Shown: positions 6,235-59,400, numbered from the whole stretch's first letter. The stretch: DNA of 62,462 bases, filler included, from Hausera hauseri (GCA_046269625.1; 12 parts of 12 records of this genome joined end to end with filler, not necessarily neighbours in it); one strand, 5' to 3'. Translations and numbers: made by a program. Notes: generated by a model not told the origin, from the letters alone.

Positions 6235-6239
6235 TTTGA

Positions 6240-10637: not shown

Positions 10638-11171
10638 CTGTATGCCCAGCTTCTTCTCCACGGCCAGAGCACCACACAGGTAACCTGCCCTGCCCACAAA
10701 CAGTTCATCGCAGCCTTTTGGCATAAATTTGGTCTTACAGCATTCAGGCGCAAGAGATTGATAGCGTTTGATGTTGTCATCTAAAAGTGTTTCATCTTTC
10801 AACGCGTGCCCTAAAAACATGCCAACTACGTACAAACCACACGGTCCAAGAATGAATGACACCTCTTCTGCTTTAGAACGTGGGTTCTTCTGTAGAATTC
10901 TCATATCACGATCGTACAAATCTTTAGCCAGTCTCAAGTACTCCCGCTTGTGTTCAGAGAATGGCTCGTATAGTGAAGCCCGATACAGCATGTAGGCAAC
11001 GCCAGCAGAGCCGGTATAAAGGCATCGTTCAAAAGGAACGGAATATGCAGCGTCGATAACAGTCTTGATCAGAGCGAGAATACGCATATGCCACATGTCC
11101 TTGTCTATAACAACTTCATCACCAGGAGTGTAGTCCGGGAGGGTATTGACAAAGTACCTTAGTCTCGGCAT
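10638..11171 (-). CDS. LANCL3: LanC-like protein 3, first coding exon
   Basis: RYFVN..DY; LYTGSAGVAYMLY; SFILGPCGLY; GCDELFVGRAGYLCGAL. Ends at splice donor CAG|GTATGC (10638/10637), matching the KQKLAQE|V boundary as I recall it for vertebrate LANCL3. Confidence 0.9.
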
Positions 11172-20080: not shown

Positions 20081-21660
20081 TTAGGTGCGTATGATGCGTT
20101 GTATTCCGTCTACGGATTTTTCCCTGCTATAGGTACAAAATGTCACTCTGCATGCCTTATTTGATTGATTTGTACTTGGCTGTTGAACGATATTTTGTGG
20201 TAGACGTTTTGTAGGGTTTTCTGATTCAATTTGCTGTGTTGTTTGTGTTGAAGACATTAAAGATGGTGAAGAGAATAAATCAAGAAAGAGAGGCAAAGAA
20301 ACTGAAGGTGGTGACGATAGTGAAAGAGGGGGAAGAGAGGCCGACGGAGAAAACGGAATAAGCGATGTAGGTACAGTAGTCGGTGCGGAAAATGAGGATG
20401 ATTTATTACGAGAGAAACGTGGTTGCTGCAGCGGAGCGAATTCGTGGAGAAAGTTTAAGGAAGTAATGGAAGGAGTGAGAGTTGAGATAGAGTTGGAAGT
20501 AGAATCTGCACCGGATTTTCATCAGGGAAGAAAGCGAGTTTAAGATTCGATATGTGGACGTTGTAGAGTTTGTCTCGGCGTAAGATGGTAGCTGTATGAG
20601 ATGAGAGGTGAAGCAGTTTATATGGGCCAACATACTGAGGTCAAAAACCCGAAGGTGATTGATCCTTCATCTATACAAACTTGGCTGAGTATAAATCCTT
20701 CGGAATGTATGATTTGTTATTGTTTAATATGCAGCAGAACTAGTTTGAGCTGACCTCAACAAAGTGAGACTGTGCCGCACGAATGTTTTCGTCTGTCGGA
20801 TTGTCGCTGAAGTCAGAAAGTTCGAACAGAGCCCGTATTGGAGTTCCAAAAAGTGCCTCGGCTGCACCACAACCCGTGGTGATGGAAGGCGTGTTACGCC
20901 ACCCGAGTAGAACAAATGGTAGGATGAACGTCCAATTGCGATGATTGTCTGCCAAGATTTTTAAAGAAATTTTCATTGTTCGATGTAACCTTTCAAGAAG
21001 GCCATTTGATTGTGGATGGTACGGTGTTGTATGGAAATGTGATATCCCCAAGCGTTTAACAAGCGATTTAAAGAGTTCCCATTCGAACTGCGGACCTTGG
21101 TCCATTATGATGTTCCGTGGGGATCCAAAACGACTGATCCAGATTTTAATGAAGGCATCTGCTACTGAATCAGTGTTTGTTGAACGGAGAGGAACGGCTT
21201 CAGGCCAGCGAGAAGCACGATCCATCATAGTGAGAATATGTTGATAAGGTAAGGGTCCAACAAGATCAAGATGGACGGTATGAAAACGTAATGTACATGA
21301 AAAATGGTAAAGCGGCGGTTTAAGATGTTTGTTTACATTGTATTTTTGACAGTCTACGCATTCCTTAACCAAACCCTGTACATCTGTGCGCATTGATGGC
21401 CAAACTACATGACGTCGGAGCAAGCAAAACGTGGCTTTCGAGCCTGGACGATGAAGTGAATGCGTGTGAAGGAAAGCTGGTTTTTGCAAAGAAGGAGCGA
21501 GAATGATTTTTTATTACCGGGGTTAGATGTGTCGTATGCAATGCCATCAATGATTTCGAAGGATTTGAAAGAACGAAGAATATCGGCAGACGGCTGATTG
21601 AGCTTTAGAATTGCGGTAGAAAATATTGGTCCAATCGTAATTGAACCGATCGACTGCGAC
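20081..21660 (-). pseudogene. pol: Gypsy integrase with low-complexity tail
   Basis: HSLHRPG..CVDCQK; VHLDLVGPLP; RWPEAVP; DQGPQFE; YHPQSNGLLERLHRTMK. Confidence 0.93.
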
Positions 21661-22900
21661 AGCAAAATCTGCGACCAAATTCTCAGTATCTGAAATATAC
21701 TTTATGACAAAACTAAATGTAGATAGATACGATATCTGTCGTTCCTGCCTCGGTGATGGCTGTTTTAGTGACATGATGTGCAGCAGAGGCTTGTGATTTA
21801 TTTGGATGATAAGTAGACAAGAGAGGAGGCGATGCTTGAAATGTTTTACTGCCAGAACTATAGCTAGTAGCTCACGATCAAATGTTGAATATCGGTTTTC
21901 TGGTTGCGTGAGTATTCGAGAGTAAAATTCCAAAGGTTCATCGACGCCGTTGGAAATATGGTGTAGTATTGCACCAGTAGCTATGGTAGAGGCATCGGTT
22001 GTAAGTATTAGCTCCGCGTGGGATTTTGGATAGGCCAGTATTTCGACCGTTATTAGGTCTTCACGCAAGTAATCGAATTTGGTGACTAAATCGGGAGTTC
22101 ATTGGATTAACTGTCTTTTCTTTCCAGATGAGAGGTGCGCGAAAGGTGCTGTAAGCTCAGAGCAATGCGGTACGTATTTATGGACGAAATGTAGTGTGCT
22201 AAGAAAACTCCTCATATCTGTAGTGATCGTTGGTAGTATTACATTTTTCAATTGCTGTAGTCGATCAGGTTGTGGAGAGTGGCCGTGAGCAGTGATGATG
22301 TGGCTTAAGAAATTGGCACGTTTCTGAAAGAAGTTGCCCTTAGAGAAGTTAACTTGTAAGTTCCTATGATGTAGTCTGTGAAAAATAATTCGGAGATGTT
22401 CATGGTGTTGTTTGACGGAGTTGGAGGCAACTAACATGTCATCGATGTAAGGATGAGCAAAATCAAGGCCTGAGAGAACGGTGTCGATGTGGTGTTGAAA
22501 AGTTTGGGCTGAATTATGTAAACCGAATGGCATAAACATGTGTTCGTAAAGGCCAAATGGACTGATGAAAGCAGTCTTTGGATTGTCATCGGGTGAAACA
22601 GGAATTTGATGGTAGGCTTTGTACAGATCTAATGTGAAAGAGGTATTGGTGTTGTTAAGACTGCAGGATGTCTTTTATGAGCGGTAATGGGTAATCATCC
22701 ATGATGGTTAGATTGTTTACTAGACGGTAGTCGCCACGTGGTCAAAAAGTACCGTCCTTTTTTGCTACTACATGTAATGGTGAAGCCCGTGGTGATTTAG
22801 ACCTCCAAATGATACCAGATTTTTGGAGTTCGTTAAATTCTAATTCCGCGGCTTTTCGTCTCCGAGGCGATAATGGTCTCACCTTTTGTCTGCTAGGTCT
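21660..22900 (-). pseudogene. pol: Gypsy reverse transcriptase + RNase H
   Basis: ASPLHVVAKKDGT; MPFGLHNSAQTFQ; YIDDMLVAS; LTTDAS; RYSTFDRELLA; NHKPL. Confidence 0.93.
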
Positions 22901-23115
22901 TTGGTGTCGGATGACAATGTGGTGATAAGTTGTTGACAGGGGCTTAAAGCTAGAGTTCTTTTTAAGTATACGAGAACAAGAAGAAATGATGTAGGATTTG
23001 AGATTGGAATCCAGTGATAAAAGTAATTGAGGCTTATTATCAGAGAAGACGGTGACTGTGATTGGCAAAGAACGAAGGACATCGCCGCCGTCAACATTCG
23101 GTTTAACCGATTGTT

Positions 23116-23691
23116 TTAAAATCGACTTCGATATTCGAGGTATATTGAGAAAATAGATAAACTACTAGATTTATCGTTATCAACCGACGAGCAATTTAAC
23201 AACTTCACGTGTGAGTTCGCAGACGATTGGTCTGTTGAGCTGTCTGTTAGACAATTGCTAACGTTTACGACGGAGTCTCCACGTAGTAAACAGCCATACT
23301 TGCAGTCAACTAGTAGGTCGTGTGCGGCCAAAAATTCTGATCCGATTATTAACGATTTAATATTGGCCACGTGGAATTTCCAGACAAACATGCCTGGTAA
23401 GTTTGAAAATGTAAAAACCAGTTCCGTGGTACCTGTGATTCGCAAAGGTTGACCGCTGATGGTGAAAAGCGGAGGAGAAGAAACTGCTGTTAATGTAGGG
23501 ATGAAGGACAAAGGGAGGAGTGAAAAAGCAGCTCCTGAATCGATGAGAAAATCCATATGTGGAGCACTGCTAGAGAACAGTGTAGCTTTTAACAGAAAAA
23601 CCGCGGAGGCGGTGTTATGACGGCCAGAAGACTGAGAAGTATTGCCTATGCCAGAATGTGCCGTAACATCTGGCGGCCTTTTTAGTTTCAT
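23116..23691 (-). pseudogene. pol: Gypsy aspartic protease
   Basis: FLIDSGAAFSLLP..IIGSEFLAAHDLLVD. Confidence 0.9.
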
Positions 23692-24505
23692 GAAGATTGT
23701 GGAGGAAAAGAATATGACTGATAAGAAGAAGTAGGAGAAGAAGATGAAGAAAAACTGAAGTTGTTTTTGTAATGTTTACATCCCGGAACACACGATCTGG
23801 CTAGAGAGTTGAATGTTGTGTGATAAATAGAGATAGGGCTGTCCACCGCAAAACGCTCGTCGTAAAATATACAGCCCAAGATACATTTTTCTGCGTTTCT
23901 ACGAAATTTCTTGTGATAAAAACAAATCATTTGTCCGCCAGGAGATTTAGAACAAAATGTGTGCCTGAAGAGGCTACGCTCACGCGATGCACGAGTCTCA
24001 CCTTGCCGAGACATAAACATATTACTTAGTTGGGCTGTGATGGTGGAAATCGAATGCTGTAGAGTATTGTATTGTTTTTGCATTATTACGTGAGATGAGG
24101 TATGCGTGGTTGCTGCAGCTACGGGTTGTGAGTTGTTAGTTTGCAATATTTCGGAACTTTTATTAGCCAATAGGGCAGGTTTTTTAATCGCCGTCGAGTC
24201 GTCAACGACAGTAAGGAGAGCTCTAATGGAAGTGGTTAAGGAGGAGATAAAATAACGACAAATAAAGTCCTCATTGTTGGTAGGGGTAACGCCAAGAGTA
24301 CTTAGGTGTGAAATAGAGATCTGCAGAAAGTCAGAATGCTTTTGACTGCCTATAGCATGTTCGTTAAAGTACTTGTGTATTATATTATCAATCGATGGAT
24401 GGGTAATATGAAAAACAGATTAATAAAACATGTCATATGGTGTTGGCGAAGTAAGGATATTAGTAAGATTATTGATTTGATGCTTGATATTTGCTGGGAG
24501 AAGAA
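23688..24505 (-). pseudogene. gag: Gag with tandem CHCC (C-x2-H-x9-C-x3-C) motifs
   Basis: CFYHKKFRRNAEKCILGC, then SIYHTTFNSLARSCVPGC. Confidence 0.88.
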
Positions 24506-26368: not shown

Positions 26369-27466
26369 ATGATTTCTTCACAAACCAGTGACATCACAGA
26401 TAAGGTGACCACAAAACCCAAATCCATTCTCTACTGTCCCAAATCAAACCATCCACCTACTTCAACCGATACTAATTATTTTCACAAAAATCCTACAATT
26501 ACACCTCCACATTGCTCTGAATACTTTATAGACAATGAAAATTTTAGGGAAAGGTGGCTCCACTTCCATCAACTCTGGTTACAATCCAACGGTATCACAG
26601 ACTCGTTATCCAATGCCCATAATTTAATCTACCTTCTACCAAACTCTATAAAGCCTTAATCCATAACTTATTGGACATCTTTCAACACCCTTACCCTTAT
26701 ACGCAATTGTTCAATGCTGTGCTAAAACTAAAAGAACCACCAATTGATTCGATAATACAACGCTTCTTTAATGAAAACGCAGTGGGAACACAAAAACCTA
26801 GTGATTTCTTACGCACATCGTTGGTCGACTTACGTACCTTGGGTGTCACCAAGGAACACAACCCGGATCTACTTCGCCGATATTTCCATCATGCTTTACC
26901 TATTCAAATAAGGGTATTACTTACTGTTGTTGAGGATTCTACAGCTTTAAATAAACTATCTGAATTGGCCGATAAAGCACATGAATTTTTACAAATACAA
27001 TCACAACCCATCATATCAGCCGCAATTACGACCGATAACAATCAACGACATACATATATCGAGCACCAATTAAACCAATTACGCGTCGAAAATGCGGCAC
27101 TACAACATACAATCTACACCGTCAATGATAAGCTGAATGACATTTCCTTACATCGACGGAAGGCTTCCTCGCCTCATCGAACGCGTTCTCCTTCCAGAAA
27201 TCGAACACCGTCACCAACGCGGTCATTTGTGTTATTACCACAACAAATTTAATAACAAAGCAAATTAATGCTGTTTAGAGTGTAGATATTATTCGCTGAA
27301 TCTACACTCAGATAACATAGTTTGCATCTATTATGCAAAATTTGGATCTAATGCTCGGGATTGTATTTCAAGTTGTAACTATAAAACTAACAATAACTAC
27401 ACCACTGATACACGTTCCAGTTTCTCTAACAGTAACCGTCCTAACTCACCAATACAAAAAAACTGA
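26369..27466 (+). pseudogene. gag: Gag (CsRn1-like), one stop at 26657 and a frameshift near 27230
   Basis: PYTQLFNAVL; GTQKPSDFL; LP..IRVLL; LSELADK; CYYHNKF..C..C and CIYYAKFG..C..C. Confidence 0.85.
27457..27463 (+). promoter_or_regulatory. Putative -1 ribosomal frameshift heptamer at the gag/pol junction
   Basis: A AAA AAC immediately before TGA; copy 2 has TCA TGA AAC TAA at the equivalent position. Confidence 0.6.
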
Positions 27467-30436
27467 TTTCGTCGCCAGTATTCTCGGTAGATTCTGGAAA
27501 AGGCAACTTACTTAATTCCTCTTGCCGACACACTTCTTTTGCAGTCTTTACACTAAAAACTGCTATCTCCACTTCTAACATTCAATCGTTCGACTTCTTC
27601 ATCGACACCGGTGCAGCGATCTCACTACTACCACTTTCTTTTCCGGTCCAGCCTTCTTCACTTAAAACAAAACCTTTATACACGGTCTACGGTCAACCTC
27701 TTCATATTGGCGGAACTTGCAAATTATCTTGTACTTTGCCTAAATTTTCCTCTCCATTTTACTGGACGTTTACAGTCGCTAACTTCCAGACGGCAATACT
27801 TCGCTTTAATTTCCTTTCGCACAATAATTTGCTAGTCGATTGTAACCAACGCTGCTTAAAATCGAATACACCTGTAGACTGTAGCACAGGAATAGACAGC
27901 ACCCCAACGACAACACAGCCAACAGTAAGTAGGTAGTCTATATTAAAACACTCAGTACCTCATTATAATTCCAATAACTATCACGTTTTACATCGTAAGC
28001 TTCCAAAGAATAATGCTGACAGTCAATCACAGCTTAATGTCGACACCCACCATCTGGTATTTTCAGTAAAATCACTGAACAACAACACCTACTCAAATAC
28101 GGTTTCGGACCCGACCATCCTACTTTAAACTCCACCCGATTCCTCATTAACAACCATCCACCATATACCAAGTACTGCTAGCAACCTTGATTCATCGTCA
28201 CTCACAACATTCTAGCAACTACCTATAAGTTTACAACATTTCATCCATATTTCTTGTCCTCGTATACTTTAGAAAGATCGGAACTTCCCCCCAGTAAACG
28301 TCATTTACCATCATATAATTACAAGATATCAAAGACCATTTTGACAAAAGGTCCCTCCATTGTCACCGCGTCGCAGGAAGGCAGTAGAGACGGAATTTAT
28401 GGAACTGGAACAATCAGATATCGTCCGCAAATCTAAATCCCCATGGTGTTCACCTCTCCACGTTGTCAAAAAAGGATGGATCCTTCCGACCATGCGGCGA
28501 TTACCGCCAACTTAATACTTTAACCATAATGGGTGCATATCCACTACCATTAATCAAAGACATTACATCGACTTAATACTACTTCAGTTTATTCAACAAT
28601 TGATTTAGCCAAAGCTTACCACCAAATTCCTGTCGCACCGGAAGATATCGAAAAATCTGCTGTTACCACATCTTTTGGTCTTTATGAGTACTTGTATATG
28701 CCTTTCGGTCTCCGGAATGCTGCACAGACTTTTCAGTGACACATCGATTCAATCCTTTCAGACTTCACTTTGCTCATCCATATTTTGATGATATCTTGGC
28801 TGCTTCTTCTTCTGTTAAACAACACGAGGAACACCTACGATCTATCTTCAAACGACTTAACCAGTTCAATCTATAGATCAATCTTGCGAAATGTAACTTC
28901 TTTCAAAAACGCGTTAATCTCCTCGGACACATTATCTCTTCAAACGGCCATTCACCTCAACCTGATCGAGTCGAGACTCTTAAAAATGTCCAACTATCTA
29001 AGACAACAACAGAAACGCGCAGTTTTCCTGGTACCCTGCATTTCGCCCACAAATATGTTCCATATTGTTCGGAACTCACGGCACCTTTTGCACATTTAAG
29101 CGGAGGAGAAAACACCGGAAAATCGTGTGGACACCACAACTAGTTAATAGTTTTGATAGACTACGAGAAGGAATAAAGACTGTTGAAATACTAGCATTTC
29201 CTAAGTCTGACGCTGAGTTAATTTTAATTACAGATGCATCAAACATCGCAGTAGATGCTGTACTACACCAGTTGTATAAAGGCGAAAATCAGCCTCTAGA
29301 ATTCTTTTCCCGAAAATTAACGCCATCAGAAACTAGATATTCAAATTTCGATCGGGAACTGCTGGCAATAGTTCTTGCTTTAAAACACTTTTTTCACTTA
29401 ATTACGGCTAGTAATTTTGTTATACAGACTGATCACAAACCATTGATTAATATAATAGCAATGAAGCATCCTTAAACTCGACAAGAACGGCAAATTTCAT
29501 ATTTGTCCACATTTAACTTGGACATTAAACATATCGATGGCGTTGTCCATCTAGTTGCCGATTTCCTATCTAGATCAGTCGGTTCAATCAATTTTTCGCC
29601 AATATTTACTCAGACAAAACTCCAAGAAAATCAACAATCCCACGATATTTTCAAATCGTTCAAGTCACACCACATCGTTGACGGCGTGGTTTTAGATACT
29701 TCCAAACCAGGACATTCTAAAATAATTCTTGCCCAATCTTTACACAAACAAGCATTTGATAGTATACATTCATTACATAATCCTGGTGCTAAAGCAACTT
29801 TTCGCTTGCTTCAACGCCAAGTAGTTTGGCCGTCGATGCGTTCCGATGTACACGCATGGGTTAGAGTGCGTGGCTTGTCAGAAGTATAAAACCATAAAAC
29901 ATTTAAAACAGACATTATAACAATTCCCTTGTACTTCACGTTTTGAAACAGTACATTTTGATATCGTTGGTCCTCTTCCAATAGACAACGGCCATAAATT
30001 TATTCTGACCATGATGGACCGTTCGTCACGATGGCCAGAAGCCATTCTACTGCGTAGTACAAACACTGACACAATAGCCGATACTTTCATCCGTACGTGG
30101 ATTAGTAGATTCGGATCTCCTGGTTATATCATCTCAGACCAAGGTCCACAATTCGAGCCAAATCTGTTCAAATCTCTAGTCAACTGATTGGGAATAAGTC
30201 ACATTCATACAACACCTCATCATTCCCAATCAAATGGCCGACTTGAACGTTTCCACCGAACTTTAAAAACATCACTTCGAATCCTCGCACCGTCAAACAC
30301 CAATTGGACTACACTTCTACCGTTCGTCCTTCTTGGCTGGCGAAACATTCCGTCCACATCCACAAGATGTTTACTAACGGAAGCATTATTCGGAACCCCT
30401 GTACGGTCACTGTTTGAACTAACCATTCTTGAAGAT
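27460..30436 (+). pseudogene. pol: Gypsy pol (PR-RT-RH-IN), heavily disrupted
   Basis: FFIDTGAAISLLP (about 27595); SPLHVVKK; MPFGLRNAAQTFQ; YFDD; ITDASN; DRELLA; TDHKPL; DIVGPLP; QSNGRLERFHRTLK. Confidence 0.93.
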
Positions 30437-31469: not shown

Positions 31470-31879
31470 TATTTTGTAATTCTAAGTATATAGATAATGT
31501 CGGAGAATAGAATTAAAAACAAACAATGTGTAGCATAATTTGTTGAAACAACGCCATGCTATTAGCACACCTTTATTTATATGCAACCATCAACATTTAA
31601 ACAAAAATTATTTACCGCGAAATTTAAACAGTGGGGTTGGAATAGTGAAACCACGATCAGTCCAGAAAAGGCTTTATTCAGTGTCAAAATTTAAACAGAA
31701 AATTTTTTTCCCCGCAAATTTAAATTTTTTATACCACCTGAATCCATACAGTACGCGTGCTTGTGTGTAATCACTTTGTGACTGTGTGACTCCTATCGTT
31801 TTCCCTAACCCATGACTTATCCGCGAACCACATCTTTTCTCCTTCCCTGACGGGTCTGTTTTGGTGTGCTTACATCTAC

Positions 31880-34673
31880 CTACTTGCATTGACCGCCTGA
31901 ACTGAACCTTACTGGTGTACGTAACCAGCCGCTTTTCTTTGTTACATAGGCGCGCATTGAGCCGCTTTTTGAGTTTCTCTACTGTTTTGCCGTAGACAGA
32001 TTTATTTTTTAACTTGTAGTAGTCCTTTACGAACTTTGTACAAGCTGCAGCTCGTTCTTTTGAATTTCGTTCAATGTATGGCTTGAATATTGGCTCCTAA
32101 TTGAATTTGATAGCGCGATGCAGCTGTGTGTCGCATACACCGAGCTGCATGTAGAACTATAGCAGACGCCAATGGATCATGTAATTCAACTTCGGTTCAT
32201 GCGCCATGAGGAGTTTGTTCACCTTTATGCCGCCGAGCGTACATTGGCTGATTGGTGCGACAGTCAATTGGTCCAAAGCGTCATGCAACTCATCCGGTAC
32301 GACGAGATCAACTTTCATCAGGTAGCCGAATGAGCTGTTTTCTGCCGTGTCTGCTGTTGGAAAATTTTCCAATATTGCCTCCAGATCTTGCTTGTCAGTT
32401 AACCATTCAAATGAACAGTATGGCAAGGGTTGCGAAAGGGCCCTGTCGTACAGGTAATTAATGTCAATGTGCAACAGTGATGTGGTGTTATCATCACTGG
32501 TTACGTGGTACTTGTTGACAAATATCATGCCGCTACAATTAGCAACAGCTCACTGTCCCGTCTAATGATATCAGAGCCGACGCTCAACTCACTCCTGGTA
32601 TGGAGTAAAAGATGAGCGGCTTCAGCCTATCTTCCGTCAACGCCTTAGTCCGAAATGTCCGAAACACGTCGGCCAGCAAGTACACGTCCAGTTTCAGATA
32701 GTGGAGCATGTAATCCAATAGGCTTCTGCAGCCGAGCTATGACTAAGATTCCTGTGCTGTGTGATATTTATCTTCTGTTATACTGGGCCACTGCGGCAGC
32801 AATTCCTCTGTTGTCTGAAGCTGCTCGTACGATACAGCAAAGTCATACGGGAATATGCCTTTGCTACGTGCAACATGCATCGGAAACTGCGTTGGTGTTA
32901 ACGGCACATCCGTCAAAGCATTTACCAACTTTGCTGGAAACACACTGAGGAACTGTAATGAGTCAAGGAATCGCATCTGGAACTGATTTATGCGTGCCGA
33001 CAGAGATAAGTATTTCTCCATCGTTGTTGGTATTATGGACAATTCCCAGTGTGGAAATCAATTAATGACCCATTTCAGAATATGGTGACAATCAACCCCT
33101 GAAGTGATCACATATCACCGGCAGGAATGGCCGCACACGCCGTGCTAAATTGCACGAATTACATGCTGCTCCCAGGTATCATCCGGTAAAGTGAGCCTGA
33201 TCAGGTACGAGCCGTTCTTGTTTATCGAATAGTGATATTTTGTGTCTCAGGTAGCATTTATCTGTGACTGCAAACGTAAGGCGTTCGTCTTTGTCTGTCC
33301 AGATGAAAGGCTTAGTGCTGTACCACTGTGCGATTTCCGCTTCCACTATTGCCTCAAACTGGTGCAGGAAATCACTTACACAGTTCCATCTGTGGAAAAT
33401 GTAATATTGCGGTTGTCCGGTGGCTTTTATTGGTACCAGCAACATACCGACGGCGATTGGAATGTGCTTTTAATTGTATGCGTTGTTCTACGATAGAAAT
33501 GCTTCAACATCTGCATAGACCACATATGCCGGACTGCCCGTTTTCGACCAGTCATTGAATTTCAGCTCCTTTTCGACGGGTATGACGTACATTGTTTTTT
33601 CCTATACGTTTCGTATGCATAGCGCCATGTGTTTTTCCATTTCGCTTCTGATCTGAAGCCATGCAAATATATAGGGCACCATTTGCAGCGTATATGTTTT
33701 TGTATGAACTGGTCATGGTCCACGTTCAGCAGTATGTCCAGATTTGTTACGGCCACGTAATGAAATTTTTCTGCCTGCTCCAACAGCAACAGGTATATTG
33801 CACGTCCACTCGGGTTTTCACTTCAATAGATTATGTCTACGTGAGGATTTTTGTAAATTTCCTCATCAGCCGGTATCTCTATTACTGAGTTGTACCGGAA
33901 AACGTTGATTGACAGTGTCGGATTACGCCGTTCAAAAGACGGAATGGTTTTGAGGTTTATCGCCATCCAGATTTCATCAAAGTCCAATTCGGAAAAATAC
34001 TGTCGATATTGTTTTGAACGATTTGCACGATTTCTGGGCATTCCTCATATTTTAATATAGCTAAAATACTGTAAAGAAAACAGTATTCTTCGCTATTATT
34101 TTCTACATTGCCTACAGTTTTAGAGTGCTTTAGGGCTGCAGGTGTCGGTATGAATGATCCCCGACAAGTATATCATGTCACTCGACTTTGTAATGATAAA
34201 GCCGAGACTGACAATCTTTACAATTCGCCATCCACTACCCTTTTCTGTGTAGTTGGCGATTTCCTCCTCAAGCTTTTCGCCAATCTCAGCGATAAAATCC
34301 TTGGTATAGGGTACAGCTTGATGTGACAGATACCATTGTTTTCTTTTGCCTCGCACGTTTTCGAATTCTGAAAGTGCATGATACTGCACTTTGCAGTGGT
34401 GGTGGTGTTGGAACTTGTCCACTTTAGATTCCAACCGGTTTCGCACAATGGATAGAAGATGTCTCAGTTGCGTTGTTGTTGTTGCTGACATGTTCACTTT
34501 TATATCCACGTACGATTTTTTCAGATCGTACCTGACAGTTATGTGTGGTTCCTCCCCCTGATGCTTCTGTTCCTGCTGCTTCTGCTGCTCCTTCTGCTGG
34601 TTTTGATTTCTGTTCTTTTGCAAGTATTCGTCAAATCTTGTTGAGGCCTGATGTTTTCTACTTGCTGAAAGAA

Positions 34674-40326: not shown

Positions 40327-40339
40327 GGGGGGGGGTTGG

Positions 40340-43300
40340 CTCAGTGCACTCACTTCCCCCTACTACAGGAGATTAAAAACGTACGGCGAGAGGAAATTTG
40401 AAGAATAAAGCACTCCAAGTGGGTCAGAGGAAACGTCCAGAGAACTCGTAAAAAGTGGAAAGACGAACTAAACTCATGGATAAAGCGAAGTAAGAACGTC
40501 CCAAGAGCTATTAAAAACATTAGAAGTAGACCCAAAGTTAAAACGAGTGAAACTTAATTTAGAAAGATTGATTAGTGAAACTGAACATGCGATGGTAATT
40601 CACCCGACACAAAAACTGGTGAATGAAGGAAATACATCGAATTCTAAATATTGGGTATAAACCCAATAGACATTCCTCCTCTGATGGAAATATGCAAAAT
40701 CGCGTTTACCACGCCTAAGAAATATGCAAACATAGAAACTAGCATCGAATCTGAAAACAAGAAACGCTCCGAAATGTATAAGTTGAAGAATAAACTAATG
40801 AAGATGCACAATGAAGAAATGCAGAACGTGATAAAATCGTGTACTCTAGAATTGGACGAATATATGAATAAATTTAATTACGCTAAGTAAATCATGGAGT
40901 TTATAAAAGATCCAGATGACAAATTAAAAGACGTCAATGAGATGTTAGATAACGAGACATATGCTAAACTGATCGTAGCAAATCAACTAAAAGAATGGTC
41001 CGAGTTATTGTCAAGATTAGCCTGATTAATAGACTATTGCCTTAAAGAGCTTTCGGTGAGTGAACCAATATTAAAGCAGCAGTTAAAAGAGATATTACGA
41101 AATATAGATATGATGAAAGCAGAAATATACATTAGGATTCAGTTCGACGCGCTACGGCAACTGAACTTTATGAGTAAAAATCAGGAAGTGACAACATTGA
41201 AAAAGATATACAAGATGATTGAAGAAATAGAATTTATAGTAAAACGAGATATTACTGGTAATTTATACCCGAAACTAAGAAACATTCGTTTAGAAGGAAT
41301 CCGACATTTGACAACTAAACCTATTGATGAAATTTCAATACAACTTCTCGGAACATTAGATATTTTCTCAGATCAGAAAACTGCGTAGACGAAGTGTTGA
41401 AAATTTTGCACAAACCACAAGAATGAATGATAGGATTATATCAGAATTGTCAAGCCGAACTGATAAAAATACGAAATGACCATCAACTCAGTTTTGAAGA
41501 ATTTAAATTCGTAAAGAAATTGATGGAAAAAATAGATCCCGATTCAAAAATCTCAAAGGAAATATACGAACTTACACTATTATTGATGGAAAAGGCAGAG
41601 ATCAATGATGACAAGATGAGACATTTGACAACTTCAAATACGACATGTCGAATAGACGTGATTAAAACAAAACAAATAACAACAGGGTTAGACAAATTTG
41701 CCAAAAAATTTGAAATCTACAGAAAGAGGTCCGCTTTTACCGAGTCAGAAATAAACAAAAAGTCAAAATTCATACAAAGATGGCAGAGACGTAACCTCCG
41801 AATGAACTGATTATCAACAAAAGGGGTTTATCCAAGCCGAAAAAACTAGGCCCATTACTGAAAATAATTCAGCATGCTTGTGGAAACGGAGTGGAATTCC
41901 GAACCACATAAATGAAAGAAATACGACCAAGGTTAAAAGAAATACGAGAAATCGTTCAAAATACAAATACGGCACTTTTAGACTACGGACTTCCAGAGGT
42001 CGTAAACGGACAAGATTGGGATGCGTACTTGGATGATGTATATCATCAAGGTCCAAGGACCCCAATACAACTTAGAGAGACCGACGTATGTCCACCGGAT
42101 CGAAGATTCTACGTGGAAATTCCTCTGACTGAAAATCATTTTATCGAACAAAGTTATGTAAATAAGACTAAGAATAAGTTAAGACAACTAATTTCTACAT
42201 TGACTAAACTCTCAAGTGAAAATGCAATTTATTGTGCAGTGCGAATACTTTTAATAAGGAAATACGCTAAATCTTAAGGGGTAAACCCGAAGAGACGTTT
42301 AAAGTAAAAGTATCGTCTGAATGGATGGATGAAAAAGAAATCGAATGTTCTACATCGACATCAGTTGGAGATATAAAACAGTGGCTGGTGTAAAACGTTG
42401 GTAGAAGCAAAGTAAATTATCGATAGTATTTTAGAGGAAGAATACTGGATGAACTAGAGTTATTAATAAAGGTTGGGATTATTTCCGAAGAAACAAACCG
42501 AATAGTGGCCATTATCACCAATGAACAGACTAAAGATGAGGCTGAAAGAAAAGCCAAGACTGAGCATTGTGTAGGACGAATCATGTGAATTCAAGACGCT
42601 GCGATGTACTTCGAATACTTGCAGACGGACGAAGATAAATAACAATATGATAAAAATCTAGTGCCATCAAGAGGAATAATGCCACCTGCTAGGAAGCAGA
42701 AACGGTTGGTCGGAAGTCCAAGGAAAATGCGTGACAAGGTCGACTGCAATACGGCATAGCAATTACGGTATTTGACTGAGACAAATTCAAACTGTGTCAA
42801 AAATATTCATTAATGGATTTAGAGATGTTAGAAGATGCTAGACCCATAAACTAGAGACCATTGAAAAAAGTACATATTGTTTCAACAACGTGAATTAATC
42901 GCATTAGACGGAATGGAATGTATGTTGCGAAGATCAAGAAGTATTTTCCACTGCGGACAAATGCACGAGCACTCCTCCGTAATTAGGCCGTAATATAAAC
43001 AACAATGCAAACAAGCTCAAGAAACGGGTAAATTGAGATGGGGTGGTATGAAATTGGAAGCGCAATAAGAAAAAATAATTCGAGCATACAGGCCAGCAGT
43101 TGGAAAGCTAGATATGCATACTGAATACTGTAGCGTAGCAGAATACGATACTAGAAGAGGAAAAGAAGGCGGTGTAAGAATAGTCAATTTCTATGAAATT
43201 AAAATGCAAACTCAAAAAGTAATGTTTCATAGTGTTACTAAGGCATACACGGAAAATCATATATGTACTATCCAAAACTGTGCTTGTGCCTTTCTAAGTT

Positions 43301-43500
43301 CAGTGATAATTTGGGATCCACCCTCTAGAAACGATTGTCACTTCATTAAAATTAAAAAAATGAAATTTAACGAAACAACCAGAAAAAATACGTGAACACA
43401 ATAGATACTAACAGCAGATCAAGAAAAGACGTGGCTGAACGTTCCATGACTAGGATATTAATCTCGGAAGCTCACGGCCTGAAATTTCTTAAGAAGCAAA
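40340..43500 (+). pseudogene. env: Decayed relative of the 1203-4567 polyprotein: long helical region + UBL + AT-hook remnant + class III glycoprotein
   Basis: UBL 42298-42516 (YFRGRILDELELLIKVGI); KRLVGSPRK 42700-42726; ITVFD*..YSLMDLE from 42762; EC..FHCG, YC and KFNET align with the contig-1 protein. Confidence 0.8.
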
Positions 43501-43529
43501 TGCTTACAATCGATTGGAGCTAAAAAATG

Positions 43530-43980
43530 AAACATGCTTTATTAAAATATCTTCAATATCCTGAGATTTAACCTTCATAACGAGTGATTCTACCAGTTTT
43601 TTCTCATCATTATTGGTCTCTGCTGACATGTTATATAACCTTCCCTTATTTTCTTGAGTTTCAATTTCTGCTACCTTTTTCAATTGATCCTAATCCCATT
43701 CCAGTATAAATCCCTTTTGTTACTCCTTCATCCATTCGAATTCCAACCCATAATCATCCCTCGCTAACTGTTACTAGTCCACCACTTACTAAAGGATAAC
43801 GTTTTCCCACATTATCCTTATCTCCAATAAATAAAAACAAATCGTTAAGATCATCTTGAGGTAACTTGTTGTCATCCATCGTCAATCCTCTGAAAATATT
43901 CTCAGTTGTCCTGTAACCGCATATCCTCCGACAGTATAAATGTGAAAGACAACAAAGATCCTCGAATCTTACCTTCATAA
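43530..43980 (-). pseudogene. Possible gypsy pol protease-RT spacer fragment
   Basis: PLVSGGLVTVSEG..GMGLGSIEKV..IEDILIKH pattern. Confidence 0.35.
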
Positions 43981-45001
43981 AGATCTACATTGCGGCGCAC
44001 TATTGCAGATGGCATTGGTTTAAAGATGATGGGGATACTATTCGTGACACAAACGGAGCTTCTATACCATTTATACAGGCTGCATTCTTACCCGGTTTGA
44101 CCGAAATTTGGTAATGCTTCATGCTGCTGCTTCCTATAAATACATGGAGCAAATATTACCCAGGACACTAAATGCATGAGTTGTTTTAGTTTGTTATATA
44201 AATACGTCCAATTTAACTTTTCTTACTACCTTTTCTTTGCTTCCGTTTGCACATCTAATTACAGCATTCGAAGGGTTAATTCTTCTCAATTTCGTCAGAA
44301 TTGCATTTCTGATAACATTAAGACCGGCGCCTGTGTCGAACATTGCCTTGATTTTACGATTATCTAATTGGCAAGCAACAATCGGTTTTTTTCCTAGCCG
44401 TTTCTTTCTTTGACGATAAAATCAAAATTGGTTCGCGAGGTTCCACTGAAAACGGATAGTTTTAGAACTAATTGAATAGCATGTTTACATAAATACAGTA
44501 AAAACTCTTTTATTGGGACAGCAACAACCGTCAGCAAAGGGATACAGAAAATATTCGACTACGGGGAACGCCACAAATTATAATTTACGTCAAATTTGAT
44601 GAATACTTAAATAAAAAAGGAACTGATTAAGTTGAACGATCGAGATGAATCAAATAGATACAAAACTGTTACGACAATCGCAAATTGACAAGGTAAACTT
44701 ATTTTTGGAAATACTGCAAATTCTGGGAAATTTTTGCTAATTTTGAGAATCTCGCAAATTATAGAAATTTTTAATAATCGCGTTAGTTATCAAATGTCCA
44801 ATATCAACATATTTAGAATTGACTGGTCCAAGTTGGGAAAAATGTCTGGAATTTTATAGACAGCGGAAGTTGAGTAAAATGTAGAAATAGAGAAATCACC
44901 AATACGATCGCTAATGCCGCAAAAAAGAAAATGCCTAATAAAAAAAGTCCGACAAAACCTCGAATCTTAAAGCAACAAACAATTCTTTTTCTTTCATGGG
45001 G

Positions 45002-46002
45002 TTAATGTAGGCCAATGCGCATCACAGTTCGTACTTGTTTTACTGCATTACCGTTAATGAAATCTACATAATGATTTTCCAAATCTTTCTTCTTAAGCCA
45101 ATTTCTAGTCTTGTTGGATTGTGTTTCTCGTTTATTTTTGCCTTTCACATCAATCCAACAGTCTTTCTCCAAAGTACAGAGATGGTTGGTTTGATCATCC
45201 GTGAGGTATGTGTCAGATTCTGATGTTGCGTCCATTACTTTGTACTGTAAAGGTTCATCCATCAATTCGTTAAAATACCCAAGATTTGATTTCTCAAGAC
45301 AGAAATTTTAAAAAGTGTCACTACCATATTTGAAACATTTTTATTCTTACAATTCCTATCAATTTGATCAATTTTACTGCACGTAAAGCATTTAATATTT
45401 TTTGAATACTTATTAAAATAATCCTTATTAAAAGAAGGAGAATTACTTTTCACCTTCGACTTCAGGATTTCTATTTCCTTTTTTCAAAGCATCTATTTCA
45501 GTGCTGTTGTCTTTGCTGAATTTGAGAACAAGCCTTTCATTGTCCTGGATTATTTCTTCCGATGTGTCTTTCACTAGCTTGACTGTTTCAATCAGTTGTT
45601 TCGGTTTTAGACATTTGAGTGCTTTAGATATTGTTTTGAACGCTTTAATCATCAAATCTTCCTTATTTTCCACGATGGGCATGGCAGCAATGCGTATTTG
45701 GTTTCCGAAATCCACTGGATTTTCGGTCAGTCGTTGATACAAATTCAGAACATCTGACGAGGCCTTTTTTCTTAAGGGGATAGTAATAATTTCCCATCAT
45801 CCGCAATTGAAATCGATTCGCCCGTATATTCTTTGTTAATCTTTGCATGGATTAGTGGATTCGTGACAAAGTCACTTTGAAACATTTTCAATTCCGCATC
45901 CACTGGTAATTCCACCTCCTTGAATAATCTGATAAAATTTTGAAACTTCCCGAACAAAAAAGTGATATCGGTATCCCTTTTTTTAAATATTTGTTTCCGC
46001 CA
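45002..46002 (-). pseudogene. gag: Decayed gag of another LTR element
   Basis: QRLTENPVDFGNQI; degenerate knuckle KCFTCSKIDQIDRNC; lies directly downstream of a PBS. Confidence 0.7.
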
Positions 46003-46031
46003 TTCGTATTGTTGGAAGATGAACTCTTGTT

Positions 46032-46045
46032 CTGTCGTGACGCCA
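46032..46045 (-). promoter_or_regulatory. Primer binding site, tRNA-Ser(CGA)-like
   Basis: Minus strand reads TTTAACA|TGGCGTCACGACAG. Confidence 0.7.
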
Positions 46046-46221
46046 TGTTAAATAAGATTAAACAATCAAAATAAGATAAAATACCTTAACAACAACAACA
46101 CGTAGAATAGATAAAAAATTATAATTTCATTTTATCTAACATTGACTAAAATTAGAAACAGTTAAAATTGAATAAAAAGGGACCTAAATATGGTCGGGTT
46201 CAAACATTAAAACTAATTACA
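46046..46221 (-). repeat. Putative 5' LTR (about 176 bp)
   Basis: Minus strand TGTAATT...TTTAACA, abutting the PBS. Confidence 0.5.
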
Positions 46222-46498: not shown

Positions 46499-46744
46499 AA
46501 CTCGATGTGCTCTATCGATTAGCACTTTATCCCGATCGATTCGATCAATACTGCACTGTGCAGCGATCGATTTGTCAAATGTGCAAAAATGCCCTTAGCA
46601 ACGGTGCGTAACGGTACCGTTGCCTAGCACTTTATGGATCGATAGTGCTCCGGGTGCACTATTGATCGGCACATGTGCAAAATCGATTTATCGATTAACC
46701 CCCCCCCCCGGGGTCTGTGCCAGAATGCCCATTTTCTCCCTACT
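46499..46744 (+). repeat. Polinton terminal inverted repeat end (..CTACT)
   Basis: Homologous to 61660-61903; ends ccctact at 46744 and is followed directly by polB coding sequence. Confidence 0.75.
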
Positions 46745-49700
46745 CGTGCCAAAGACCAAGTTGTTGTAAAGTTTGAACTGGTCCTTCTCAAAGTCGTTTT
46801 TGGCATTTGTCCGCAGCTTGGTATTGAGATCTATGTAGGGGTGCAGCCACATGGACTGACTGAACTGGATGATTCTATGGATCTTGGTAATACGAAGTCC
46901 ATGTATAACTGCCTGCTGGAGATTGATGTAGTGGACTACATACCTCTCCTTATTACCCAGATTACAGAGCAGCTTCTTATGCTTTCTGTGGTGCGGAGGC
47001 TTACTGTCAGAGAGGAAAGGCAACTTTTGATGCCTTGAATGGATGGAAGCCGGATATTCCATATCCACCTCCAGTATGTAGCCCGTATCTCCAGTGAGAT
47101 CCAGGTCCAATATAGGGATGTCTTCAGGATTCTCCACCCATTTGAAGTTACAATACGGCAATGGGGTGCTCATTGCATATCCATATAAGTTGTTGGCATC
47201 TAGGTATGATATATATGAGGATTCCTTGGATGGATCATACTGGGTCATATACTTGTTTTTGGCCTTGCTATACCGATGAATGGCCTGGCATATTCCGCCT
47301 CTAAGGCCTCTCTCGATCATAAGGATCATATCATAATCCTTAATGATCTGCAGCCTTATGCCGATATCTCTCAGCATTGCTGCCCAGTTTATCCCTGGAG
47401 ACTTAAATAATTGAGCAGGATCCAAAGCATGGCTCTTCATTGTAACATCCCTGAAACTCTCAAAGACATGTGTCAGCAGCAGCACGTCCGTCTTGAGTAT
47501 ATGTCGCTGTATTCCCCTAAATTTCGGCATTTGAATGCCTGCCAGACGTTCTGAGCATGTTGGTAGTCCGCATCACTGATATAGCAATCAGAGAAAATTT
47601 TGTAAAAGTCCTTTTTGTCCGGCAATGTGCTCTCGTCCAGTGTTTCCTATGAGGTTATGTAGTCATAAGGAAACACGCCTTTCCTCTTGACTAGGTCAAA
47701 TGCAATTGGGACGAATCACTTTGTCTCCTTGAGTTCTTCTGCAGGGAGGTTCTTCACTAAACTATCCAGTGAAGATGACATGAAACGAAAGCTATCTATG
47801 AAACGAAGTCGGATTTTACCAACATGTTTAGTGAAAGTGATATACTTCTCCTCACTGTTGGGGATCACATCAATGTTTCCTTCATTGCTGCCCAGTTCCC
47901 GAACAATGAAATGGGTATCATAGCCACTGAGTTTGTTGAACACCACAGGCACATATCTGCATATTTTGCAGCGTAGATAGCAGTTGTTGCATGCTGCGTC
48001 CCGATGTGCATCTGTAAAATGGCAATGATTCTTGACTTTATAATTTTACTTTATTATGTTTATGCTGCTGAAGCTTATCACCAATCCTATGAGCCATATC
48101 TTTTAATCTCTTCATGAAATGTGCTGCTGCACCTGGACCTCTGAATAGAAATGGTTCACTCTTTAATTCTTTGGCATGCTTCCAATATGATGAAGTTTCT
48201 TGATCTTGGTATGCCGTTGTGTTGCTATGTTGAGGATTGGGAGTGCAGCTGTGAATTGGCCGGAGAATAGCTTCAAAATCGCAATAGATAAATATTGGGA
48301 CCTTGATCTTCTTCTCGAACTCCTTGAATTCAATATAGTCCTTCTTGGGAAATTCTGGTCTTACATAGTAATTGTTGTTGCTGTACATTTTGTGCTCTGC
48401 AAGCTTGTCTACTGCTGTATTACCACTGAAATTGGAAAAGCATCACTGACATATTTCTATTTGTCCATGATGATTCGTAATTTGGGATCTGACTAGACGC
48501 TCAAAATTCTTCATGCAAACATAATTTTTATTCTCCATCGTCTAGTAGGAGCAGATCCCTATGATCTTCCAATTCAACTTCGCATATCCGCAGGGGAAAA
48601 AATTTGTCCTCCTGAAACAATCCAATGATGTTGATGGATATACTGTTGATTTGGCTGAACTTCTTAATTTCCTCTAAGGGTGGAGGGAATGTGATACATT
48701 GGAAGTCCTATTTGTGCTTCAGATCATTATATAGCCAAACTCGATTTGCTGCATGTTTTTGATCCGGTACGAGTTTTGATAGAATGGCATACATGAAACA
48801 CGTTATCATTATTATGGACATTGATGCATGCTTTTTTGTTAACAATACATTCCGGAAGCTGAATATAAGAACTACCCCGCATTGGAGAGTACTTGTGAAC
48901 ATACAGAAGCAATCTCTTGATGGTTGCCAAAGTCCACCCGCTCTTCATGTATCTATTCTGCTATATTGGTGGCTTCAAAAATGGGTCGATTTCTGGTCTT
49001 GAAGGCCCTTTTGGACTCTTCGTCATCAACATTGACGTATGCGGCCTCAAGTATCATATTAGCCGTAATGGCCTTAAGCTCAGCAATGTTATCCCGCAGA
49101 ATCCCCTGTTTTTTCTTTTGTGTACTGCAGGAACTCCTTGATGGTTGTTTGACCAGTTGCATCAATGACATATTTGCGGCATTTCCTCTTTAATGCTGTA
49201 GCATCAGCTAGCCGCTCTCTTAGACTCTTTTATGGAGCCGGTACGTCTGATGCGTCCGATGTCCGTTTTAGTCCTGCATTTGGCTGTACTGCAGGCTATG
49301 ATACTGCAGGCTGTGGAACTGCAACTGGCTGTGTTGTCACAGCAGGCTGTGCTGCTAAAGCAGTATGCTGCTTATTAAATATGACGTTCTTTGGCTTTGA
49401 ATTGAAGTCAGCCAAATGATGTTTGTGATCATCATAAAACTCTGTATTCTCCATCACATACAGCTTCTCATTCTGGGCAAATATAATAGAGGATTCTGTT
49501 GAATTTATGTCCATATTAGTTCCGCATGGCATTGTGACAATTCTGAGGGTTGCGTATTACACATGTGCAATACACATATGAACTGCACCCTCGATTTTCC
49601 TTCTGCACGAAAGTCGTTATTGGCATATTGGTATTGAATATTTGTTTTTTCGACTTGGTGAAGGAAATCAAGTGCTTTTTATGGACATTGTAGAAGTCTT

Positions 49701-56438: not shown

Positions 56439-59400
56439 TTACAGTGCCACATGACCGTGAAGTAGTGTATGGATTCCATCGCTCAGGATCTGATTCTTGC
56501 CATCCATCCAATCTAGGCTTTTCTTATGCAGTGTTACTGTTTGGATGTTATGATTCCTAGATTGGATCCTTCTCATTTCCGATATTATGTGAGTCTGCTC
56601 ATGAAGAACTCTCACATAGTCTTCAAAACAAATCTTGTTGGTTACGGTAGCCCTCTGAACGCCATTGGCTCTCTTTCTGATCTGGCCACATACGTCTAGA
56701 GCATATATTTTGTACCTGAGAGCCACAAATCTCAAGATGACTGTACAATTAACCTTGTCTTTGAGTTTCCCTAGGACTTTTTTATTGACAATTGAATAGT
56801 TGGGATGATCCTTTGGATAGTCCCAGGTATCCACGTGTTGGGCCAATTGGTTAAAGTCCTTATAAATATCATCTGTATGCATCTGATAGACGAAACTATC
56901 AGAATCCGTATATATCAGCTGCATGACTTGAACTTGGGGACCAAGGTCTTTGACAGATCCAATATTGTCATAACCACATATATGGGCTTGTTGAATTGCA
57001 AGGATATTTTTATCATATGGATGCTTACCACGTTCTCAGTATATATGGTGCTGCTACGGACGTTAGGCTTGGCAATGAGCTTCTTTGCCCGCTTCCAGTC
57101 ACATTCTAGTTCAATGTTGATCCTGTTGCGTATATTCTTCACGGTCTTGCCAAAACACTGTTATTATATAGTTTGAATTGATCCTTCTCAAAGTCGTTCT
57201 TGGCATTTTTCCGCAGCTTCGTATTGAGATCTATGTATGACTGCAACCACATGGACTGGCTGAACTGTAGGGCTCTATGGATCTTAGTAATACGAAGTCC
57301 ATATCTAACTTCTTGCTGGAGATTGATGTAGTGGACTACATACCTAACTCTATTACCCAGATGACAGAGCAGCTTTCTATGCTTTCCATGTGGCGGAGGC
57401 CTGCATTCATGGAGGAGAGGCAGCTGTTGATGCCTTGTGTGGATGGAAGCCGAATATTCCATATCTACCTGCAGTATGTATCTCGTATCTCCAGTGGGAT
57501 CTAGGTCCAGTATAGGGATGTTTTCAGGGTGCTGAACGCAATTAAAGTTATCATAAGGCAATGAGACGCTCATTTCCAATCTATACAAGTTGATGACATC
57601 CAAGTATGATATATATGATGATTCCTTTGTTAAGTCGTATTCGGCCATATACTTGTTGTTGGCCTCCTATCCCGGTGAATGGGTTGGCATATTCCGCCTC
57701 TTATGCCTCTCTCAATCATAAGGATCATATCAGAATCCTTAATGATCTGCAGCATAATACCAGTATAGCGTAGTATTGCTGCCCAACTCATTTCTGGAGC
57801 CGTAAAGAAATGAGCTGGATCCAATGCATAACTCTTTATCGTAACATTCCTGAAACTCTCAAACACATCTGTCAGCAGCAGCGTGTCCGTATTGAGGTAA
57901 ATATCACTATATTCCCCTATTGTCATGCACTGGAATATATGCCAAACGTTCTGAGCATGCTCATAGACCTTATTAGTGATATCACAGTCCGATAGCTGGC
58001 TACAAAAACCATCCTTGGGCGGTAAGGAGGTCTCATCGAGTGTTTCCCATGAGGTTATGTAGTCAAAAGGAAATACGCCTTTCCTCTTGAAGAGGTCAAA
58101 TGTAGTGAGGAAGAATCGCTTCGTCTCCTTGAGTTATTCTGCAGGGAGGTTCTTAACTAAACTATGCAGTGAAGACGACATGCAACAAAAGCTGTCTATG
58201 AAACAAAGTCGGATTTTACCGACATGCTTCGTAAATGTGATATACGTCGCCTCACTTTTTGGGATCACATCCATATTACCATCAATGTTGCCTAATTCTC
58301 GCACTGTAAAATGAGAATCATAGCCACTGGGATTATGGAACACTACAGGCACATATGTGCATATTTTGCAGCGAAGATTGCAGTTTTTGCATGCTGTCCC
58401 TCTATATGCACCTGTAAAATGACAGTGATCCTTGACTTCCCAATTTTCCTTGGTGAAGGACTTCTCGCACAAGTAACATGTTGTTGCCTTGCGCCATTCT
58501 TCTTCTTATTTCCACGACATACGTATTGTATCCTTATGCTGCTGCAACATATCGCCAATCCTATGAGCCATGTCTTCAAGTCTCTTCATGAAATGTGCTG
58601 CTACACCTGGATCCCTGAATCCATATGATTCACTGTCCAGTCCATTAGCATACATGCAATACGATGAGAGTACATGATATTGGTATGCCGTTGTGCTGCT
58701 ATGTTGAGGACTGGGGGTGCATGTGTGAACTGGCATGAGAATAGTTTTTAAGTCTCAACAGACGACAATTTGGACCTTGAGCTTCTTTTCGAACCCCTTG
58801 AATTCAATATAGTCCTTGGGGAATTCTGGACTTACACAATAATTGTTGCTGCAGTACATCTTGTTCTCTTCAAGCCTGCGCACTGCAGTATCACCGCAAA
58901 AATAAGACAGGCATCGCTTACAGATCTCAATTTTTCCATGACGATTCGTAATTTGAGATCTTACTAGACGTTTAAAATTCTTTATCCATATGTAATGTTT
59001 CTTTTCTTCATCGTTTAGTAGGAGCAGATCGCCATGATCTTCAAATTCATTATCATATATTTGCATGGGTTAGAATTTATCCTCCTCATCCGATCCATAG
59101 ATGTTAGTTGGTATGCTCTGATTAGATTGAACTTCTTGATTTCATCTAAAGATGGAGGGAATGTGATACAGTAGAAGTCATAGCTGTGCTTCAGATCATT
59201 ATATAGCCAAACTCGTGAAGCATTATGTTGATCAGGTACGAGTTTTGATAGAAGGGCATAAATGAAACACTTGTTGTCATTATTTTGGACATTAATGCAA
59301 ACGTTTTTCTGATGAATCCATTTTGGGAGTTGTATATATGAATTGCCCCGCATGATGGAGATTCTGTACACATGCACACACAGTTTACTGACAGTTGTCA

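Follow-up and report, generated by a model that had tools for sequence, protein, structure and literature searches.

Background

Glycoproteins of the gB type are known as envelopes of Ty3/gypsy elements, among them elements with the order Gag-Env-Pol, and the placing of Gag before Env has been reported from Nematoda, Bryozoa and Platyhelminthes (PMC13524379, main text). Here we consider a family of elements from a 62,462-nt stretch of Hausera hauseri DNA (GCA_046269625.1), the whole of which is called the window below and consists of 12 short contigs with spacers, mostly fragments of mobile elements. The family is represented by a decayed element, copy 2, on the plus strand of the contig at 40327-46398, and by its better-preserved relative in the window, on contig 1. 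Like the elements just cited, the better-preserved members of this family have a gypsy-type Gag (PF03732, with an Arc-like capsid and one CCHC knuckle) followed by a chuvirus-like or gB-type glycoprotein, and exist in many copies; unlike them, Gag and Env occupy one frame and enclose a helical segment, a ubiquitin-like domain (UBL), an AT-hook and a probable Bcl-2-like domain. The helical segment, UBL and glycoprotein recur in the same order in three highly diverged lineages, of which copy 2 is one; what stands out is the probable Bcl-2-like domain of the intact relatives, missing from copy 2.

Dezordi et al. (PMC7642597) reportedly described Anakin, BEL/Pao elements carrying a chuvirus glycoprotein, and Anakin is also named in PMC12440569 and PMC13524379. 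The present family resembles Anakin in having a chuvirus-like glycoprotein in a retroelement of the long-terminal-repeat (LTR) kind, whereas its Gag scores as PF03732, has a single knuckle and lies directly before Env, and no BEL/Pao feature was found in it. Atlas virus, a belpaovirus with a single Gag-Pol-Env polyprotein (PMC9094657, in its available text), likewise has its envelope within one polyprotein with Gag, yet that envelope is of class II and phlebovirus-like, and Pol lies between Gag and Env. The viral Bcl-2 proteins of double-stranded DNA viruses, as set out in excerpts of PMC11209288, provide a precedent for a Bcl-2-like domain with a divergent BH1 on a mobile genome, but each of those is encoded by a gene of its own in a large DNA virus and not within a retroelement Gag-Env precursor. 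Finally, the integral UBL domains of ubiquilin and Rad23 include the best single-domain PDB match (ubiquilin-2, E 9.6e-6) and also lack a terminal di-glycine, while the present UBL is embedded in a retroelement precursor with no UBA domain seen.

The main text of PMC13524379 does not contain the terms 'Bcl', 'ubiquitin' or 'AT-hook' and 7 of its supplements contain no relevant instance of 'Bcl' or 'ubiquitin', while its figures and external sequence files may hold unannotated cases; neither 'Bcl' nor 'ubiquitin' occurs in the available text of PMC9094657 and PMC10084718. A retroelement with a Gag-UBL-AT-hook-Bcl-2-Env architecture is not described in the titles or abstract beginnings of the papers listed by our literature searches, which did not extend to Repbase or to most subscription journals.

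Conserved order in three lineages

Copy 2 was compared with three proteins: P0001, from the open frame of contig 1 (1188-4565); P0002, a database protein 78% identical to P0001; and P0003, a database protein 23% identical to P0001 and encoded by L001. A comparison of P0001 355-775 with 1.84 billion representatives returned three matches, namely P0002, P0003 (E 1.4e-10) and one polyubiquitin. P0003 was retrieved blind from among these sequences, and it supports the same architecture in a third, distant element. The polyubiquitin, P0004, was set aside as a generic UBL match and not a member of the family.

The glycoprotein of copy 2 is the N-terminal part of a chuvirus-like or gB-type protein, which is broken, lies at 42759-43386 on the plus strand and ends near 43386. 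In a frameshift-aware alignment with P0001 it scored 149 against 40.8 +/- 4.2 for shuffled sequences (n=25), and it matched both PF24664 (E 1.2e-5, below the cut-off) and profile A5 (E 7e-12 and 0.006). The UBL (42280-42537, plus strand) is interrupted by stops. With contig 1 alone it scored 48, a marginal value given that the highest of 60 shuffles scored 44-45, its score of 36 with P0002 alone was reached by 28 of 40 shuffles, and Pfam gave no match in it. Word-based protein searches retrieved P0002 alone, and the copy-2 UBL frame matched nothing among longer proteins (221 candidates). The frameshift-aware alignment found nothing in copy 2 for the Gag, linker, helical segment or hook of P0001. 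On contig 1 alone the linkage that the first-pass annotation had read from the sequence was close to resting on a glycoprotein match and nothing else.

This changed once the third element was included. Profile A4, built from the helical segment and UBL of contig 1 and L001 with copy 2 excluded, recovered the copy-2 UBL (profile positions 73-155) as its best non-self match in the window's 72 frames (E 1.7e-5), and against P0003 alone this UBL scored 73, compared with 39.9 +/- 5.1 for shuffles, of which none in 40 reached it. The last two helices of the segment preceding the UBL (42173-42271, plus strand; A4 positions 35-67) were not significant by themselves. Added across the frame break, they raised the A4 read-through score from 21.5 to 28.8 bits, a value reached by 0/500 full shuffles and 0/500 shuffles of the helix only (maximum 27.7); two other frames added nothing. 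From the profile, the shuffles and the pairwise score with P0003 we conclude that three lineages share, by sequence comparison, a homologous and collinear set of helical segment, UBL and glycoprotein; identity among their glycoproteins is 21-38% (21-25% between copy 2 and the others, 38% between contig 1 and L001).

The evidence for an AT-hook in copy 2 is only suggestive. The basic motif KRLVGSPRK occupies the corresponding position (42700-42726, plus strand) but lacks the RGRP core, and its similarity to contig 1 was not significant (z 1.3, with the best match elsewhere); a loose hook pattern, chosen post hoc and applied to 122,676 residues, matched at two places, namely this motif and the hook of contig 1. 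Every peptide that the first-pass annotation quoted occurs in the expected order in plus-strand translations of 42173-43386. Its contention that UBL, AT-hook and glycoprotein form a family trait is borne out for the helical segment, UBL and glycoprotein, by A4, the shuffles, P0003 and the order in L001 and P0002, and stays open to doubt for the hook of copy 2. The linkage was also rightly distinguished from a chance chimera, because L001 and P0002 have the same order, and for the same reason we reject the possibility that contig 1 is an assembly chimera. That the linkage is old agrees with the high divergence, although 'old' can be meant only in a relative sense, part of the divergence being neutral decay.

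The full architecture is seen in the better-preserved sequences. Contig 1, on its plus strand, has a 5'-truncated Gag (1118-1709, placed by alignment with P0002 and P0003) comprising the C-terminal part of the capsid and one CCHC knuckle (1668-1709, PF00098); its frame breaks near 1205, the preceding frame matches the Gag of P0002, and depth falls upstream. The helical segment (2250-2471) and UBL (2472-2708; PF00240, E 5.8e-5) follow, and then the RGRP core of the AT-hook (2847-2858), which with basic flanks is also present in P0002 and L001 and whose surroundings are identical at 27/27 residues between contig 1 and P0002. Further downstream are the probable Bcl-2-like domain (2940-3353; PF00452), with BH1-like and BH2-like positions (the latter RGGW, 3327-3338), an internal hydrophobic segment (3456-3521, by hydropathy) that is the predicted signal of the glycoprotein and a possible tail anchor of the Bcl-2-like domain, and the glycoprotein itself (3522-4565; PF24664, E 6.1e-27), which is ended by the contig end.

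In P0002 the domains follow in the same order and in one frame, Gag being complete and the glycoprotein not preceded by a stop, and L001 carries in one frame Gag (PF03732), a CCHC knuckle, linker, helical segment, UBL (PF00240, E 5.3e-5), RGRP hook, helical domain, a stop, hydrophobic segment and glycoprotein (PF24664, E 7e-43). In L001, P0002 and contig 1 the Gag is of the Ty3/gypsy type with capsid and CCHC knuckle (PF03732, E 7e-4 in L001; dArc2 capsid, E 5.9e-4; PF00098). The PF00240 matches of contig 1 and L001 lie just under the curated cut-off. The best single-domain match of A4 in the PDB was the UBL of ubiquilin-2; the contig-1 UBL also matched a Rad23 model (E 2e-4), and a terminal di-glycine is absent from the UBL of contig 1, L001 and copy 2. 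For the helical segment, profile searches found no named relative.

Decay of the second copy

Seven segments of copy 2 across 40330-43386, whose borders were placed by eye, contain 16 stops in 959 codons. Between 41840 and 43386 there are about 10 stops, and the frame changes near 42275, 42754 and 42855. In sequencing run X1 contig pieces show 0-1 differences from copy 2 over 41455-42483 and 42889-43539; because they match it nearly exactly, the breaks there are not errors of one assembly, although X1 may be the window's own source. Copy 2 had 1,342 contig pieces and, since 1,028 of them were less than 90% alike, we regard it as an old copy of a repeated family.

The module is preceded by some 600 codons of a decayed reading frame rich in A (40330-42150, plus strand). 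It is not detectably Gag, consists of a single stop-poor frame in most 150-nt bins with an AT skew of +0.1 to +0.4, is covered by related contig pieces in run X1, and has no Pfam match with E <0.04. Within it a short direct repeat (41302-41323 and 41619-41640, 317 bases apart) reads RHLTT at both places. The contig opens with a G run, and the summed depth at 40327-40529, 1,307, is far above that of the next bins. Given a 5' part without detectable Gag, copy 2 cannot be taken as just another copy of the contig-1 element, as was first supposed; either its accessory region was far longer and Gag lies outside the contig, or its front end was of another kind.

At the junction between the basic motif and the glycoprotein (42727-42758, plus strand; judged by spacing and hydropathy) about 200 codons are absent from copy 2. 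The distance from hook to glycoprotein is 227 residues in P0001, 225 in P0002 and 210 in L001, whereas in copy 2 it amounts to about 15 codons and the hydrophobic signal has gone: the mean hydropathy of the hydrophobic segment is 2.3 in contig 1 (15 residues), 2.0 in P0002 and 1.1 in L001, but 0.18 in the best frame of copy 2. The gap that the first-pass annotation read as a deletion between the AT-hook and the end of the signal peptide is thus real, be it private to this copy or common to its subfamily. Among the pieces listed, with 1,501 others outside the listing, no contig piece bridges the junction, which consequently rests on the assembly of the window.

A probable Bcl-2-like domain in the missing segment

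The first-pass annotation did not name the content of the missing segment. In contig 1, P0002 and L001 the interval comprises a domain of about 140 residues and the hydrophobic segment. For the contig-1 piece the top Pfam match was Bcl-2 (PF00452, E 6.9e-4, 20.6 bits), covering profile positions 4-100 of 100; the L001 piece, which is 23% identical to it, matched both PF00452 (E 0.019, 15.9 bits) and TIGR00865 (E 0.0087), the latter without a match in the contig-1 piece. P0001 alone had no PDB match. When the two pieces were combined in a two-sequence profile, A6, Bcl-2 or Bcl-xL accounted for 59/60 of the PDB matches listed (best E 0.048), and the alignment extended from the BH1 glycine through the BH2 GGW without large gaps. 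The BH2-type RGGW occurs in P0001, P0002 and L001 at the Bcl-2 spacing from BH1 and aligns with the GGW of Bcl-2 and Bcl-xL.

Two further observations bear on the nature of this domain. P0001 and P0002 are identical at 124/138 positions (90%) within it and at 66/71 in the BH1-BH2 core, compared with 24/41 and 18/32 in the flanking spacers, and by this contrast the domain looks constrained. Foldseek, run on an AlphaFold model, returned Mcl-1 or NRZ in 42/42 of the matches listed, a ranking that likely reflects sequence and helix pattern more than the modelled shape. We therefore consider it probable, from sequence likeness, that the segment is homologous to Bcl-2, although this falls short of establishing it as a member of the Bcl-2 family.

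Neighbouring elements and family copies

Copy 2 is faced on the minus strand by a separate decayed gag-protease element (43387-46050), recognised by PF13975 and by depth. Its aspartyl protease lies at 44200-44430 (PF13975, E 4.3e-5) and a degenerate knuckle at 45319-45477; the 800 bases after the protease contain no reverse transcriptase or other Pfam match. Summed depth over 43387-46050 is 6-38, whereas across much of copy 2 it ranges from hundreds to thousands, and related pieces continue differently past 43386 in 4/4 sequencing runs. We reject on these grounds the possibility that it belongs to the copy-2 element; it is likely to be a separate insertion and the cause of the truncation.

Contig 1 had 16,387 contig pieces in run X1, of which 1,284 were at least 99% alike and 5,441 less than 90%, and 632-2,298 in three other runs. 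Thousands of divergent pieces indicate a family of many diverged copies, although the depth is not a measure of copy number. Among the 40 variant places listed of 1,121, 18/29 in the contig-1 frame fall at third codon positions. No long direct repeat was present in contig 1 or in the copy-2 contig.

Elsewhere in the window are gypsy-like gag/pol fragments (4960-7083, 20740-24419 and 26623-29889; integrase PF00665), which the Gag profile of the contig-1 family does not match, and fragments of a Polinton-like protein-primed DNA polymerase B at 46688-47572 (PF03175), 56439-58133 and 31674-32549, the latter two identified by eye. An exon of a LanC-like protein (10611-11183, minus strand; PF05147, E 1.2e-12) probably belongs to a host gene; together with the mobile-element fragments it is in keeping with an animal genome.

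Scans of viral_contigs found no relative of the element. The candidate that they yielded, L003, was dropped as a phage protein sharing a short motif only; its gene (L003:4721-5185) lies, by eye, just upstream of a terminase-like frame, and it shares WLKCRGGW with the Bcl-2-like segment, a chance match. A metagenome candidate, L002, was dropped for want of profile support, an earlier metagenome scan having yielded nothing.

Discussion

We suggest that Gag, helical segment, UBL, hook, Bcl-2-like domain and Env would be made as one precursor at the endoplasmic reticulum, where the glycoprotein would enter the lumen by means of the internal hydrophobic segment and then be released by signal peptidase. 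The hydrophobic segment, 30-45 residues past the GGW, could then stay behind as the C-terminal anchor of the cytosolic Gag-UBL-hook-Bcl-2-like part; cellular Bcl-2 proteins have a tail anchor at the corresponding C-terminal place. The glycoprotein would serve cell-to-cell spread and the hook would bind AT-rich nucleic acid. Since its closest counterparts are ubiquilin and Rad23 domains and it lacks a di-glycine, the UBL may be a docking module for proteasome-type receptors and not a modifier. The Bcl-2-like domain would restrain death of the host cell, which seems its most likely role in a mobile element.

On the likeness described above, a relative of the cell-death regulators is likely encoded by the retroelement itself. 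The fuller account, in which 42200-43400 represents a broken copy, truncated and also shortened internally, of a Ty3/gypsy-like family whose better-preserved members have the order Gag-helix-UBL-hook-Bcl-2-Env, and in which the domain restrains death, taken jointly, stands in our judgement slightly below an even chance. More tentatively still, we suggest as a possible history that an old, widespread, env-bearing lineage of LTR retroelements captured a Bcl-2 gene into a Gag-UBL-AT-hook-Bcl-2-Env precursor, its tail anchor doubling as the envelope signal.

A number of observations weigh against this interpretation. Only three independent lineages are known, and neither pol nor LTRs were found linked to any of the four sequences, contig 1 and L001 both ending inside the glycoprotein. 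In copy 2, the 1.8 kb at 40327-42150 match neither Gag nor linker of P0001, P0002 or P0003, though the contig begins at 40327 and Gag may lie beyond, and no Bcl-2-like match occurs anywhere in 40327-43500. In L001 a single in-frame TGA (3058-3060), either a mutation or a read-through site, lies between the Bcl-2-like domain and the hydrophobic segment, and the start of the glycoprotein is not preceded by a methionine. Both pieces fall short of the curated PF00452 cut-off of 31.4 bits, and in a longer L001 piece Bcl-2 was third of five Pfam families, two outranking it. The top PDB row of A6 was a designed repeat protein; the AlphaFold models were of low confidence (predicted local distance difference test, 39 and 43), and the Foldseek matches, obtained with the second, had E 0.02 or worse and root-mean-square deviations of 13-17 A. 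The VIA search included no Bcl-2 protein among the 50 rows listed. The NWGR of BH1 is not conserved, SRNK and EDTK standing in its place, with the preceding glycine kept. Finally, W-x-K-C-R-G-G-W also occurs in the unrelated phage protein L003, and GGW alone therefore proves little.

Among the alternatives, the one that survives best, though we think it somewhat unlikely, is that copy 2 represents a distinct subfamily, whose front end was different, such as a long accessory or integrase-tail region, and which never bore a Bcl-2-like domain, which was instead added to an old helix-UBL-glycoprotein unit in the branch of contig 1 and L001. The upstream codons that match neither Gag nor linker, the more distant glycoprotein of copy 2 (21-25% against 38%) and its lack of any Bcl-2-like remnant are consistent with this, but the signal segment is gone too, so sequence was lost at the junction regardless, and Gag could lie beyond the contig start. 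Such a history is compatible with the fuller account given above as far as contig 1 and L001 are concerned.

It is also conceivable, but rather unlikely, that the domain has a true Bcl-2 fold without blocking apoptosis by way of a BH3 groove, and was retained for membrane binding or innate signalling, or mainly as the source of a hydrophobic segment that routes the envelope. Poxviruses possess non-apoptotic proteins of this fold. The burial of the domain within a Gag-Env precursor would suit such a role, as would the loss of NWGR, which is a frequent BH1 signature (PMC11209288, in excerpt). Against it, viral Bcl-2 proteins without recognisable BH motifs (DPV022, PMC11209288, in excerpt; F1L) can still bind Bak, Bax and Bim, and the BH1-BH2 core is among the best-conserved parts.

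The family trait could, thirdly, be real and the segment before the signal an unrelated helical bundle, matrix-like or a spacer for instance, with a chance likeness to Bcl-2. The sub-threshold scores, poor models, the VIA list, a search of the Atlas that gave no usable match for either Bcl-2-like piece, and the GGW of the phage protein all agree with this, yet two pieces so diverged from each other both match Bcl-2 models in register, and the residues common to them fall on the BH1 glycine and BH2 GGW positions at Bcl-2 spacing; we consider it doubtful. That the copy-2 UBL and helix match by chance and the glycoprotein alone is homologous, as the marginal UBL score with contig 1, the lack of one with P0002 and the missing Pfam ubiquitin match might suggest, is highly improbable and largely refuted by the A4 match, the 500 shuffles, the correct position and the score with P0003.

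Elements of the gypsy type with gB-type envelopes are known across animals, and their published descriptions comprise Gag, Pol and Env. Within the reach of our literature searches, accessory domains in a Gag-Env precursor are a previously undescribed form of such a Ty3/gypsy-like element, a class assigned from Gag and Env only, pol and LTRs being unseen, and the conserved accessory block inside the Gag-Env frame implies that some of these elements carry captured host-type domains. The decayed copy 2 is without function; it is of value because, as a third and distant element, it attests the linkage and places the association of helix, UBL and envelope before the separation of these lineages. 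The architecture also suggests a route by which an envelope gene gains an internal signal. The Bcl-2-like piece is a small, testable domain and, if it is a working Bcl-2, the retrotransposon would control host cell death directly. A retroelement would then have its own functional viral Bcl-2, a strategy described for double-stranded DNA viruses (PMC11209288, in excerpt), with consequences for the survival of such elements in gonadal cells and for their passage from one such cell to another.
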